This document shows, one piece after another, positions 2,279 to 6,744 of a DNA stretch of 6,744 nucleotides. The position numbers and the translations under genes were made by a program. Source of the DNA: Lineavirus I22; sequence record NC_001332.1, one strand, 5' to 3'. The stretch's first letter is position 1. Each line of letters starts with the position of its first letter. The notes beneath the pieces were generated by a model. It did no database searches and was not told where the DNA came from. It saw nothing but the letters and a program-made list of their open reading frames with translations.

Positions 2279-2305
2279 CGGGGTAGGTGCGTTAGCCCTG
2301 CCCCG
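2279..2305 (+). other. GC-rich hairpin just after the gene IV stop; candidate packaging (morphogenetic) signal or part of it
   Basis: 5' arm CGGGGTAGG (2279-2287) pairs with 3' arm CCTGCCCCG (2297-2305): 9 bp including one G-T wobble, 9-nt loop. No T-run follows, so not a classic intrinsic terminator. In Ff the packaging hairpin sits at this position. Confidence 0.4.
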
Positions 2306-2353
2306 TATCCTCACAGCGTCCCCTGACCCGTATCATTCGCTTATCGCCGTATG
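2295..2353 (+). repeat. Iteron-like direct repeats CCCTG(C/A)CCCGTATC with a third partial copy GCCGTATG
   Basis: GCCCTGCCCCGTATCC (2295-2310) and CCCCTGACCCGTATCA (2320-2335) are 25 nt apart with one mismatch in the 14-nt core. CCGTAT recurs at 2347-2352 and ACGTAT at 2380-2385. Confidence 0.4.
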
Positions 2354-2596
2354 TGCTTCCCTGTCTTGTCCCTAAGGCTACGTATTGCCTCCCCGTTTAA
2401 ATCGTCAAGCTATAAATCGTGGGGGCCCCATCGCCCTGTTAAGCTGCCTTTTTTCCTGCGATCCTCCCGCCTCTCTGTTGTCTGACGGTCGCAGACGAAC
2501 AGGACGTTACAGCCATTGTTTTTCGTTCTGCTGGCTTCTTTTTTTGGGGGGTGTACTCTTGTTGCAAAATCGCAACGCAGCGGGGGTTAAATCATG

Positions 2597-2672
2597 CTGC
2601 ACGAAAGTCTCACTTTCGGGATTTTGGTTTTTGGATTTCTGCTGCGGAGTCAGGCGGGGCGGGGTGAACGTG
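2597..2672 (+). other. Nested inverted-repeat structure in a G-tract-rich segment; candidate ssDNA origin element (minus-strand priming site)
   Basis: CTGCACG (2597-2603) is complementary to CGTGCAG (2666-2672). Inner hairpin CGAAAGT-ctc-ACTTTCG (2602-2618). G-tracts at 2545-2550, 2582-2586 and 2655-2664. Functional assignment is inference. Confidence 0.3.
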
Positions 2673-2743
2673 CAGTGTATGTAATACTGCAACGTTTGTC
2701 TCAATCTGATACCTCTCTACTAAACGCCTCCTTTCTTTTTAAG

Positions 2744-2754
2744 CTCTTTAATCA
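2744..2754 (+). promoter_or_regulatory. Candidate plus-strand origin nick-site core (CTCTTTAATCA)
   Basis: Resembles the Ff pII nicking region TTCTTTAAT^AGTGG as I recall it (9 of 11 identical), in a T-rich context upstream of gene II. Hypothesis only. Confidence 0.25.
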
Positions 2755-3002
2755 TTTTCTTTTCTGCTAATTCTGTATAGTTTTCAATGACATAGTTTAA
2801 GTGAATCTGTCCATGTGACCTGTACGCCCGTACTTGTACTAATCCTGATCGCAGTATCACTCAGGTTTTTCTTTTTCTCGGTGGTGATACTGGCTGTTGT
2901 CCTAACTGGTTTTTTCATTTTATGCCTTTGAAAAATATAAAGTTTCTACCGAAAATAGGTTTTTAAGCGTAATCTTATTGTCAATAGATGTAAAAATTTT
3001 TG

Positions 3003-3030
3003 TTGCGCACGTTATTTTTCACGCTATCAT
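3003..3030 (+). promoter_or_regulatory. Candidate sigma70 promoter for gene II
   Basis: TTGCGC (3003-3008), 16-nt spacer, TATCAT (3025-3030), about 60 nt upstream of the gene II start in an AT-rich region. Imperfect hexamers. Confidence 0.3.
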
Positions 3031-3052
3031 GCCTGCATTGGATTTCATCTTG

Positions 3053-3070
3053 ATACGTGTATACACGTAT
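3053..3070. promoter_or_regulatory. 18-bp perfect palindrome ATACGTGTATACACGTAT in the gene II leader; candidate operator or RNA hairpin
   Basis: Self-complementary by inspection (core ACGTGTATACACGT, 3055-3068). Ends 9 nt before the SD (AGGG, 3080-3083) of gene II. Confidence 0.4.
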
Positions 3071-3090
3071 ACATCACTAAGGGAATGCGT

Positions 3091-4125
3091 ATGATTGATT
3101 GGGTTACAGCCGTCTTGCCTTGTCTGCATGTGCCTGTTGATGCTGGTCGCGTCCTCTCTGTTGCGCCGGATGGCTCTGTAGAATGGGAATCAGTAAAGTT
3201 TTCCCGCGTTACTGGCTCCTTTCAAAGCTCCATCAGTGTACGTTCGCAGGGTTCTGACGGTAATGGGAAAGCCACTCATTTATACGTTGATGGTAACCCG
3301 TCAAAGTGGTTGCAGGGTCATAATATCGTTGGAAGCGACGATCTCAACGGCCTTATGATTGCTTTTTACGCTCGTATGTTGTCACTACTCAATATACCTC
3401 ACCATCTAGAATCGTATCGTCAGGTGCTTTCTGGTCAGTACGAGCTAAAGCGCGTTGACATTAACTACATGTTTGAGCTTCCTACGCTCATTGATGTACG
3501 GTCATGGTTACATGCTGCTGAGTTCAAGGCTAAGACTCGTCACGGGCGCCCGGCAACTGCAAAGGGCACTCTGTACTTTGGTAAAAATTCTCGCCGTTGG
3601 TCTATTAAGGCTTACAGCAAATATGATGAAGTAAATTGCGGGAAAAAAGCTCATGGCGTTCCCGAAGAAATTAAGAAAACTGGCCTTGTTGAATGGTCTA
3701 AAAATAAATTACGTCTAGAATTAACATTACGCGCATTGCAGCTTACTGATATTAATTTAAACTTTGCTAAAAACTGGTCTACTGAAACTGCATATACTGT
3801 TTTTAAAGAATATATGGGGCGTATCGAAATGAGCGGAAATACTTTACTTACTGATACTCAAGTTATTAATTTACCGTCTGCGCTACGTATGACTTATGTG
3901 TGCTGGAAACAGGGCATTTGTGTAACAGATATGGTATCTCGCGCCACTTATTTTCGTCACCGCAAGGTTTTAAAAGAATTTGGTATTGATATTGCTGTTA
4001 CTGTTGATCGTGTTGATAATAGCAACGTTGTTCCGTTAATCCGTGTCTTAGAGGCTAAACCTGCTTCTATTCCTTCTCAATATGATAATTTAATATTTTC
4101 ATCTAATCGTGTATCAAGTTTCTAA
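3091..4125 (+). CDS. II: Gene II protein (rolling-circle replication initiator/nickase), divergent and shorter than Ff pII
   Basis: 344 aa from ATG 3091 (MIDWV..., compare Ff pII MIDMLV...). SD AGGG at 3080-3083 is 7 nt upstream; the ORF-track ATG at 3085 has no spacer. By-eye motif matches to Ff pII: SKWLQGHNIVGSDDL vs AKVLQGHNVFGTTDL, and NVVPLIRV vs NVVPLVRF near the C-terminus. The rest is poorly conserved; Ff pII is about 410 aa. Confidence 0.8.
   Translation: MIDWVTAVLPCLHVPVDAGRVLSVAPDGSVEWESVKFSRVTGSFQSSISVRSQGSDGNGKATHLYVDGNPSKWLQGHNIVGSDDLNGLMIAFYARMLSLLNIPHHLESYRQVLSGQYELKRVDINYMFELPTLIDVRSWLHAAEFKAKTRHGRPATAKGTLYFGKNSRRWSIKAYSKYDEVNCGKKAHGVPEEIKKTGLVEWSKNKLRLELTLRALQLTDINLNFAKNWSTETAYTVFKEYMGRIEMSGNTLLTDTQVINLPSALRMTYVCWKQGICVTDMVSRATYFRHRKVLKEFGIDIAVTVDRVDNSNVVPLIRVLEAKPASIPSQYDNLIFSSNRVSSF
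3829..4125 (+). CDS. X: pX, in-frame internal start within gene II (C-terminal domain product)
   Basis: In-frame ATGs at 3814 and 3829 (YMGRIEMSGN...) align with the Ff pX start (FEGDSMNIYDD). ATG 3829 has GGGG 7-12 nt upstream; 3814 is the alternative. By analogy only. Confidence 0.4.
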   Translation: MSGNTLLTDTQVINLPSALRMTYVCWKQGICVTDMVSRATYFRHRKVLKEFGIDIAVTVDRVDNSNVVPLIRVLEAKPASIPSQYDNLIFSSNRVSSF

Positions 4126-4135
4126 GGGGTTTTAA

Positions 4136-4462
4136 ATGCACTCAGGTATTCTTATTCGTGGTCGTATTCTCGGTTCTCGCACTGCAAACCGTGATAATAA
4201 TTCGCCGCAACATATTTTAGGCGTTGGCATTCAGAAAGCTGACGGTTTTGGCGGTACGACTCAGGATGTTGAGCAGGTTAAAATTCCTGACCAGCTTGTG
4301 CAAAGCGGCGTTGTTAATCAGATTAATTCGCTTATTGGCAAACTTTGCGAAGTACCGATTAATGTTCGTTCTTGGTCTATGAACGGCAAAAACGGCACTT
4401 CTTACACTCTGTCTTTTGAGTCCGGTATTCAGGAGATTGAAGAGCTGATTTATGTCAGATGA
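4136..4462 (+). CDS. Gene-V-position protein, putative ssDNA-binding protein; no recognisable similarity to Ff/IKe pV
   Basis: 108-aa ORF with SD AAGGGG (4124-4129) about 6 nt before the ATG, immediately after gene II and overlapping the gene VII start. Function inferred from synteny only; the sequence does not resemble Ff pV as I recall it. Confidence 0.6.
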   Translation: MHSGILIRGRILGSRTANRDNNSPQHILGVGIQKADGFGGTTQDVEQVKIPDQLVQSGVVNQINSLIGKLCEVPINVRSWSMNGKNGTSYTLSFESGIQEIEELIYVR

Positions 4463-4541
4463 ACTAATTCACGTAGTAATAGCTCTCGGCCTCGTTATTT
4501 CCTTCGGTTTGGGTGCTATTACTGCTGGGGTACTCCGATGA
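4452..4541 (+). CDS. VII: pVII-like minor coat protein
   Basis: 29-aa hydrophobic peptide MSDELIHVVIALGLVISFGLGAITAGVLR, comparable to Ff pVII. Start overlaps the gene V-position ORF stop by 11 nt; stop TGA overlaps the gene IX ATG (ATGA). Confidence 0.6.
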   Translation: MSDELIHVVIALGLVISFGLGAITAGVLR

Positions 4542-4639
4542 TTGACTATGTTGGTTTATTCATTGGCGCTTATATAATGGGCTTCGCCCTTTTCTATGGC
4601 ATAGGATTCTTTAAATCCATTGCTGAACGCATCGTTTAA
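4538..4639 (+). CDS. IX: pIX-like minor coat protein
   Basis: 33-aa hydrophobic peptide MIDYVGLFIGAYIMGFALFYGIGFFKSIAERIV, sitting between VII and VIII as in Ff. GGGG 6-9 nt upstream as SD. Confidence 0.6.
   Translation: MIDYVGLFIGAYIMGFALFYGIGFFKSIAERIV
4551..4578 (+). promoter_or_regulatory. Candidate sigma70 promoter for gene VIII, inside gene IX
   Basis: TTGGTT (4551-4556), 16-nt spacer, perfect TATAAT (4573-4578), about 75 nt upstream of the gene VIII ATG. Ff has a strong gene VIII promoter in the equivalent position. Confidence 0.4.
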
Positions 4640-4652
4640 TTAAGGAATACAC

Positions 4653-4907
4653 ATGAGCGTTATTACTAAAGTTGCTGCTGCTAAAAACAAAATCGTTGTT
4701 GGTGCTGGCCTGCTGATGGCTTCTGCTGGCGCGTTCGCTGCTGATGACGGTACTTCTACCGCTACCAGCTACGCTACTGAAGCAATGAACAGCCTGAAAA
4801 CTCAGGCAACTGATCTCATTGATCAGACGTGGCCTGTTGTAACTAGCGTTGCCGTTGCTGGTCTGGCAATTCGTCTTTTCAAGAAATTCTCTTCTAAAGC
4901 TGTTTAA
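4653..4907 (+). CDS. VIII: pVIII major coat protein precursor
   Basis: 84 aa. Signal peptide ending AFA, then an acidic N-terminus (ADDGTS), hydrophobic core and basic C-terminus. NYATEAM.SLKTQA.DLI.QTWPVV...AGL.IRLFKKFSSKAV is close to IKe/Ff pVIII as recalled. SD TAAGGAA at 4640-4646. Confidence 0.95.
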   Translation: MSVITKVAAAKNKIVVGAGLLMASAGAFAADDGTSTATSYATEAMNSLKTQATDLIDQTWPVVTSVAVAGLAIRLFKKFSSKAV

Positions 4908-4923
4908 TATTCAGCGTTTTCAA

Positions 4924-4949
4924 GGGGCGCTATTGCGCCCTTTTTTTTT
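4924..4949 (+). terminator. Rho-independent terminator after gene VIII
   Basis: GC stem GGGGCGC (4924-4930), loop TATT, GCGCCC (4935-4940), then nine T (4941-4949). Same position as the central terminator of Ff. Confidence 0.85.
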
Positions 4950-4974
4950 ACTTTAATTCAGCTAAGGTGTAATT

Positions 4975-6279
4975 GTGAAAAGAAAAATAATAGCAATTTC
5001 TTTATTTTTATACATCCCTTTGTCTAATGCTGATAATTGGGAGTCTATTACTAAAAGCTATTATACTGGCTTTGCCATGTCTAAAACTGTTGAATCAAAA
5101 GATCAGGATGGTAAAACAGTTCGTAAAGAGGTTATAACTCAGGCTGATTTAACTACCGCCTGTAATGATGCTAAAGCCTCCGCGCAAGATGTTTTTAATC
5201 AAATGAAGCTAACATTTTCTGGTATATGGCCTGATTCTCAGTTTCGCCTTGTAACTGGTGATACCTGCGTTTATAACGGTTCGCCTAGTGAAAAAACTGA
5301 AAGTTGGTCTATTCGCGCTCAGGTTGAGGGTGATATGCAACGTTCTGTACCAGATGAAGAACCTTCTGAACAAACGCCAGAAGAAATCTGTGAAGCAAAA
5401 CCTCCTATTGATGGCGTCTTTAATAACGTCTCTAAGGGTGACGAAGGAGGCTTTTATATTAATTATAATGGCTGCGAATATGAGGCAACTGGCGTCACTG
5501 TTTGCCAGAATGATGGAACTGTCTGTGCCTCCTCCGCTTGGAAGCCAACTGGTTACGTTCCCGAATCTGGAGAATCTTCCTCCTCTCCTGTGAAAGATGG
5601 TGACACTGGCGGTACTGGTGAAGGTGGTTCTGATACTGGCGGTGATACTGGTGGCGGTGATACTGGTGGTGGTTCTACTGGCGGCGATACTGGCGGTTCT
5701 ACTGGTGGCGGTTCTACTGGTGGCGGTTCTACTGGTGGATCAACTGGTAAATCACTGACAAAGGAAGATGTAACCGCAGCAATACATGATGCTTCCCCTT
5801 CTATTGGTGATGCTGTTAAAGATTCCCTTACAGAAGATAATGACCAGAACGACAATCAGAAGAAAGCAGATGAACAATCAGCTAAAGCCTCTGCTTCTGT
5901 ATCTGATGCTATCTCTGATGGTATGCGTGGCGTTGGTAATTTCGTTGACGATCTTGGCGGTGAGTCGTCGCAATACGGAATCGGTAATTCTGAAATGGAT
6001 CTCTCCGTTAGCCTGGCTAAAGGGCAACTTGGAATTGATCTTGAAGGTCATGGTTCAGCTTGGGAATCCTTTTTAAATGACGGTGCTTTACGTCCCTCCA
6101 TTCCTTCTGGTCATGGCTGTACTGATTTTGTCATGTTTCAGGGTTCTGTTTATCAGCTTGATATTGGCTGCGATAAATTAGGCGATATTAAGTCTGTATT
6201 ATCTTGGGTTATGTATTGCCTTACCTTCTGGTATGTATTCCAGTCTGCTACTTCATTACTTCGTAAAGGTGAACAATAA
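4975..6279 (+). CDS. III: pIII minor coat / adsorption protein
   Basis: 434 aa with GTG start (Ff gene III also starts with GTG). Signal peptide [19 protein letters not shown], Cys-containing N-terminal receptor-binding domains, Gly/Ser/Thr/Asp-rich linker, hydrophobic C-terminal anchor ([15 protein letters not shown]). Stop TAA overlaps the gene VI ATG (TAATG). Confidence 0.9.
5599..5748 (+). repeat. Imperfect tandem 15-nt repeats encoding the glycine-rich pIII linker
   Basis: Repeated GGTGGCGGTTCTACT-like units encoding [50 protein letters not shown]. Confidence 0.85.
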
Positions 6280-6629
6280 TGCCAGCTTTATTAGGTATTC
6301 CGGCTTTAATTCGTTTCATAATGGGGCTTGTGCCTCTTGCTATTGGTTATTTTGCTAAGTTCTTAGGCAAAATTATTACCCGTAATGGCTTGATGGCTGC
6401 TGCCTTGATTGGTGCGATCCTTTCATTTGTCACCTTTGCAATTCAGCTTTTAGGCGATGCTTTATCTTCTGCAATGGGCGGAATGCCTGCTGATTTTGGA
6501 AATTTAATGTCCTCTGTATTACCTGATGGTACAACAACTTGTATTACAGTAATTATAGACTACCAGATAGCGGTCTTTGTTTTCGATATTAAAGATCGCT
6601 TACTCGGCATTGCCAATAAGGTAATTTGA
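6279..6629 (+). CDS. VI: pVI minor coat protein
   Basis: 116-aa hydrophobic protein. N-terminus [13 protein letters not shown] matches Ff pVI MPVLLGIPLLLRF; C-terminal [11 protein letters not shown] matches AAIFIFDVKQK. Confidence 0.9.
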
Positions 6630-6630
6630 T

Positions 6631-6744
6631 ATGGCTGTTTATGTTGTTACCGGAAAATTAGGCGCAGGCAAGACGCTTGTAGCTGTATCGCGTATACAAA
6701 GGACTTTAGCTAAAGGTGGTATTGTTGCCACCAATCTAAATTTA
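6631..6744 (+). CDS. I: Gene I protein (pI), N-terminal 38 codons; continues at window position 1
   Basis: MAVYVVTGKLGAGKTLVAVSRIQ... contains the Walker A P-loop GKLGAGKT and matches the Ff pI N-terminus (MAVYFVTGKLGSGKTLVSV). Frame (6631+114=6745) joins frame 1 of the window start exactly. Confidence 0.9.
   Translation, partial: MAVYVVTGKLGAGKTLVAVSRIQRTLAKGGIVATNLNL

Follow-up and report, generated by a model that had tools for sequence, protein, structure and literature searches.

Gene V of the filamentous phage I2-2: a PF17426 protein with a predicted SSB/PriB-like OB-fold in the position of the Ff genome-coating protein

The sequence analysed here is the 6,744-nucleotide (nt) record NC_001332.1 of the filamentous phage I2-2 (Lineavirus I22), the whole of which is called the window below, and the element in question is the open reading frame (ORF) at 4136-4462. 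This ORF is the already annotated gene V of I2-2. Most probably, judging from a structural model and from analogy, gene V encodes an oligonucleotide/oligosaccharide-binding (OB)-fold protein of the Pfam family PF17426 that fills the single-stranded DNA (ssDNA)-coating role of the gene V protein (gVp) of Ff phages with an unrelated sequence. Gene V is real and under selection, belongs to a family, keeps its position across inoviruses and lies inside an exchanged replication module, and its product is predicted to be an OB-fold. The identical sequence of 108 amino acids (aa) was found in public proteins as “gene V product [Lineavirus I22]” (CAA32514.1, NP_039617.1 and UniProt P15417, G5P_BPI22); databases thus already contained the gene, the role presumed for it and its family, and the only new increment is the predicted assignment to an SSB/PriB-like OB-fold distinct from the Ff gVp type.

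When the gene V protein was compared with profile collections, it matched PF17426 (Putative_G5P, “Putative Gamma DNA binding protein G5P”) with E = 3.6e-25 and 88.6 bits against a cutoff of 25, and the alignment ran end to end, from residues 1-101 of the protein to positions 1-107 of the 108 in the profile. It also matched phrog_1547 (E = 2.9e-38), which is annotated as “unknown function”. With this curated end-to-end match and the phrog_1547 match, the protein is not unrecognisable, as a preliminary description made from the letters and translations had suggested. NCBIfam has no model for the protein, its relatives are named “DNA-binding protein” by NCBI's pipeline, and sequence and profile searches of the PDB gave nothing significant. 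Only two close relatives were recovered by a word-indexed protein search; when 1.8 billion cluster representatives were searched exhaustively with HMMER, 28 clusters emerged, with lengths of 65-124 aa and identities of 27-60%. PF17426 was matched by all 32 aligned relatives. The remote homology search recommended earlier thus yielded these 28 clusters, and the matches labelled “plasmid” proved to be replicative forms or prophages of inoviruses. No experimental study of any PF17426 member came up in the literature searches.

The dissimilarity to canonical gene V protein, as previously described, held at every level of comparison. In BLASTP, gene V had no match to M13 gVp at E ≤ 100 and aligned with IKe gVp over just 8 residues (E = 0.44), whereas IKe gVp and M13 gVp align with each other at 44% identity (E = 7e-26). 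Both M13 and IKe gVp match PF02303 (Phage_DNA_bind), for which gene V gave no match at E ≤ 1. In hhalign, a profile built from the 32 gene V relatives and a profile of 11 gVp-family proteins were aligned with a probability of 0.2%.

The position of gene V is that of the Ff gene. It sits between the replication genes and gene VII, with its Shine-Dalgarno sequence overlapping the gene II stop and its own stop codon in, or adjacent to, the start of gene VII. The strong Shine-Dalgarno sequence noted in the preliminary description is indeed present, and it shares bases with the gene II stop (TAA, 4123-4125). A PF17426 gene lies directly 3′ of a II/X-family Rep in the window and in the compared sequences L001, L002, L004, L008 and L011-L014, and the recurrent order is Rep (Phage_CRI/G2P_X_C), PF17426, major coat protein, pIII-like, pVI-like and Zot. 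The Rep-PF17426-coat order was seen in inoviruses from human and lemur saliva, in enterobacterial replicative-form plasmids and prophages, and in metagenome contigs, which hold the most distant family members; it holds down to 24-29% identity, in every context examined.

An AlphaFold2 model of the gene V protein is an OB-fold, and its best structural matches are ssDNA-binding proteins, SSB and PriB among them; such proteins lead in three independent fold searches. The structure prediction proposed in the preliminary description thus returned the fold that it had named, with the topology β1-β2-β3-α-β4-β5 superposing on SSB. The predicted structure of the SSB of Thermus phage OH3 also superposes on the model (template modelling, TM, scores 0.61/0.66). 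Together these matches suggest that the predicted fold resembles SSB and PriB of cells more than it does M13 gVp. The idea of a distinct ssDNA-binding fold or lineage holds for the lineage, which is separate from that of Ff pV, but not for the fold, as an SSB/PriB-type OB-fold is no new fold class.

Further alignment of the 32 family sequences showed conservation of G9, G13, G29 and the D-G-F-G-G loop that joins β2 and β3. All of the sequences (100%) have an aromatic residue at position 38 (F38 of the DGFGG loop), 91% have one at W80 (β4) and 81% at Y90 (β5); a basic residue is present in 66-88% at R15, K49 and K69 and in 50% at R78. The core of the protein (residues 1-93) has an isoelectric point (pI) of 9.5, and the tail (residues 94-108) has a pI of 4.1. 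A basic core with conserved aromatics is the usual make-up of an OB-fold ssDNA-binding surface, and we propose from the model that the aromatics F38, W80 and Y90 and the basic residues R15, K49, K69 and R78 may form the DNA-binding surface. When two copies were modelled in tandem, joined through 30 linker residues, 64 residues instead of 2 had a predicted local distance difference test (pLDDT) value of at least 90, and the predicted TM score was 0.63 despite 44 disordered residues. The tandem model hints at a defined dimer, and gene V is likely to be a homodimer on this basis, although the model falls short of proof.

In Ff phages, thousands of gVp homodimers cooperatively coat the plus strand, block synthesis of the replicative form and prepare an elongated complex (PMC9837838). 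Our proposal for the role of gene V is drawn by analogy with this protein (PMC9837838). The small cytoplasmic gene V protein would bind newly made plus-strand ssDNA cooperatively and with no sequence preference, the coating would stop conversion to the double-stranded replicative form, and the circular genome would be collapsed into a rod-shaped precursor for the IKe-type assembly machinery. By the same analogy, ssDNA binding, cooperativity, dimerisation, a block of minus-strand synthesis and translational repression of gene II would all be expected of gene V. In likeness to Ff/IKe gVp (PF02303; PDB 1VQB), gene V occupies the slot after gene II/X and before gene VII, its product is small, and the predicted product has a β-rich barrel and a basic core with aromatics, presumably coating ssDNA as a dimer. 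The conserved Rep-gene V-coat order and the predicted OB-fold with its ssDNA-binding matches thus agree with the preliminary description, which had assigned the ORF to the ssDNA-coating role. Its suggestion that the ORF might be something else entirely found no support. All the computational evidence obtained fits the gene V role.

A different role can be imagined for the same fold, in which gene V would be an SSB/PriB-like replication accessory that aids the II/X Rep at the origin, for instance by keeping the displaced strand stable or by loading the host primosome or helicase, and it would fall to host SSB or some other factor to coat the genome for packaging. In favour of this, the leading structural matches include PriB and SSB, and gene V always moves with the Rep gene as a single module. 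However, we consider this unlikely, since the 6.7-kb genome holds no other candidate ssDNA-coating protein and the ORF, with gene VII directly after it, lies exactly in the gene V slot. The acidic C-terminal tip of SSB recruits host replication proteins. Unlike bacterial and mitochondrial SSB and PriB (PF00436), the gene V protein, as read from its sequence, has neither a long Gly/Pro-rich linker nor an acidic DDDIPF-type tip; its tail is mildly acidic, yet nothing like DDDIPF is present. Besides, accessory and coating roles can coexist.

It is less probable still that gene V is an OB-fold protein with a function away from nucleic acids, for example binding a protein or a sugar or acting in superinfection exclusion, and that its place in the gene V slot is incidental. 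Nothing in the sequence suggests a signal peptide or a transmembrane segment, the core is basic with conserved aromatics of an exposed type, and the three fold searches are dominated by ssDNA-binding proteins. Furthermore, a filamentous phage cannot do without the gene V function, and no other gene of this genome offers it. Lastly, a chance ORF or degraded remnant, for which the sole argument would be the lack of similarity to Ff gVp, is refuted by purifying selection (ratios of non-synonymous to synonymous substitution rates, dN/dS, of 0.089 against L009 and 0.151 against L004), the 28 cluster representatives, the full-length Pfam match and the conserved synteny. The two sequences used for dN/dS are both siblings of I2-2: L009 is a 6,814-bp Klebsiella “plasmid”, 83-97% identical across the whole window, and L004 is a metagenomic tandem dimer.

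Across inoviruses, the gene V slot is occupied by a number of protein families without sequence relationship to one another. The VGJφ ORF112 protein (DUF1293, PF06950), which is annotated as a putative ssDNA-binding protein, CTXφ RstB (PF07459), the Pf3-type ssDBP (PF17878) and the Thermus OH3 SSB share with gene V the slot after Rep and a length of about 100-125 aa, but they form sequence families separate from PF17426. Falero et al. (2009) reportedly showed ssDNA binding for VGJφ ORF112 and RstB. When the gene V family was compared with VGJφ ORF112 by hhalign, the probability was 0.1%, and with E. coli SSB and with PriB it was at most 0.2%; no family member among the 32 matched the PF00436 (SSB) model at E ≤ 0.1, and CTX_RstB was touched by a single one (E = 0.038). 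No significant sequence-level link was found from the gene V family to SSB, PriB, PrgE, RstB or VGJφ ORF112.

Next to gene VII, the deposited sequence departs from its relatives. In L009 and L004, the sequence GCTGATT(T)ATG contains the TGA that ends gene V and, 2-3 nt further on, the ATG of gene VII. Compared with both siblings, the window has a 1-nt indel near 4440-4443 that knocks this stop out of frame, so that gene V runs on for five codons (LIYVR) and ends within gene VII, at the TGA of 4460-4462. As a result, the protein acquires a different 8-residue C-terminus, ending in ...ESGIQEIEELIYVR where the relatives end in ...GIQELKS, and the gene VII ATG falls inside the final 11 nt of gene V. 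The 90% cluster has seven further members, six of them 103 aa long and the seventh an 87-aa entry. Given the indel and the 103-aa cluster members, the overlap with gene VII is peculiar to the deposited I2-2 sequence, and the indel is a candidate for either a strain variant or an old sequencing error. The same protein is represented by G5P_BPI22, PF17426 and phrog_1547, with 108 aa in the entry and 103 aa in modern close relatives. The coupling to gene VII put forward in the preliminary description is present in the window as this 11-nt overlap, but it is due to an indel peculiar to this sequence. Similarly, the statement that the protein is about 20 residues longer than Ff pV is correct in number (108 against 87 aa for M13 gVp, a difference of 21), but about five of these residues come from the indel. 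The median length of the 32 aligned PF17426 relatives is 109 aa, which indicates that the extra length over Ff gVp is a family trait.

To place gene V in its genome, the window was compared with IKe by blastn. The window is a complete, rotated inovirus genome with all long ORFs on the + strand, among them genes IV (secretin), II, VII, VIII, III, VI and I (Zot), the last of which spans the window ends. IKe DNA homology covers 4465-6741 at 88.9% and 1-2303 at 75.4%, and the 2.16-kb block between them lacks it except for two matches of about 30 nt. The homology restarts at 4465, 3 nt past the gene V stop. Gene V therefore lies inside the exchanged block, as the earlier suggestion that it was carried in with the replication cassette had it, and it would have entered I2-2 jointly with gene II/X and the origin as a single replication module. 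Gene II, part of the same swapped module, is only 23% identical to IKe pII (BLASTP). In a collection of phage records that lacks I2-2 itself, megablast with the full window matched nothing but IKe and PEar phages, over 49% of its length. Exchange of the replication module in I2-2 was reportedly described by Stassen et al. (1992).

As to the source of the module (gene II/X, origin and gene V), genes II and V have been described as moving together between inovirus lineages in the UPΦ paper (PMC7307601). From this report and from the Rep-PF17426 pairing across inoviruses, the donor was probably another inovirus rather than a plasmid. A plasmid donor was considered and found no support, as the “plasmid” matches carry Zot, secretin and coat genes. 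Separately, some I2-2-like genomes were found as head-to-tail tandem dimers, namely L004 (JGI 3300007766, 15.3 kb) and the E. coli “plasmid” NZ_CP098188.1 (14,367 bp), which may represent multimers of the replicative form or may be artefacts of assembling circular genomes. A distant PF17426 inovirus, L011/L012 (ENA ERZ25074695, 22.9 kb), is also a tandem repeat and has an IS110-family transposase (domains DEDD_Tnp_IS110 and Transposase_20) right after Zot, which may be an integration module replacing XerCD/dif.

The coordinates of gene V and of the features around it are collected in Table 1.

Table 1. Gene V of I2-2 and associated features in the window.
Feature	Positions	Strand	Remarks
Replication module (origin region, gene II/X, gene V)	2304-4464		blastn against IKe; IKe-like morphogenesis genes on both sides
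Gene II, rolling-circle Rep of the II/X family	3085-4125	+	Phage_CRI E = 5.4e-78 and G2P_X_C; TIGR01629 E = 4.4e-120
Probable gene X, 98 aa	3829-4125	+	In-frame internal start Met249 of gene II; start site inferred
Shine-Dalgarno-like AAGGGG	4124-4129	+	6 nt 5′ of the gene V ATG; read from sequence
Gene V of I2-2	4136-4462	+	ATG start, 108 aa; UniProt P15417 (G5P_BPI22); PF17426 member, predicted SSB-like OB-fold
TGA, gene V stop in sibling phages	4446-4448	+	Out of frame in the window; nucleotide comparison with L009 and L004
Gene VII, 29 aa	4452-4541	+	Pfam Inovirus_G7P_2 E = 8.9e-16; phrog_19107

Within gene II, positions 1-99 of the gene-X-like profile phrog_17464 align to residues 249-345 (E = 1.6e-44). 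The candidate gene X start at 3829 is preceded by GGGG at 3816-3819, and a second in-frame ATG lies at 3814. Upstream, in the “intergenic” region of the replication module, we observed a conserved minus-strand ORF of 65-66 aa (MKKAIRTTASISTEKKKNLSDTAIRISASTGVQVTWTDLLNYVIENYTDLAEKKMIKELKKKGDV) at 2720-2918 (-), which is intact in both siblings (L009 6188-6388 (-) and L004 3768-3965 (-)). An inserted nucleotide near 2795-2800 in the window breaks it into two ORFs, 2784-2918 and 2720-2860. This ORF has no Pfam match, and by eye its pattern resembles a ribbon-helix-helix regulator. I2-2 is usually described without a gene in that region. The deposited I2-2 sequence thus contains two single-base frame changes, at the end of gene V and in the minus-strand ORF, both candidates for old sequencing errors. 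An inverted-repeat scan of the origin region with the chosen settings found nothing, and Rfam showed no RNA family in the window. Promoter and terminator scans of the window were at chance level, except for a terminator after gene VIII. There, just past the gene, a strong intrinsic-terminator-like hairpin lies at 4922-4943, with a 9-bp stem containing six G-C pairs and followed by a T run, and it matches the position of the annotated IKe terminator between genes VIII and III.

Since gene V of I2-2 has been annotated for decades and has its own Pfam family, these results are no discovery and their significance is small. PF17426 is still labelled “putative”, and the predicted fold suggests that at least two kinds of OB-fold protein serve in the genome-coating role of filamentous phages. 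We tentatively suggest, at somewhat less than even confidence, that PF17426 may derive from an SSB/PriB-type OB-fold of cells or phages, recruited independently of Ff gVp in a non-orthologous replacement, and that the ssDNA complex may be handed over without cognate recognition. I2-2 pairs its PF17426 protein with IKe-type assembly genes (75-89% DNA identity); if the suggestion is true, hand-over to pI/pIV/pVII/pIX/pVIII would need no sequence-specific recognition of the coating protein. As a natural chimera, I2-2 lends itself readily to the question of whether that protein is recognised in phage assembly at all.
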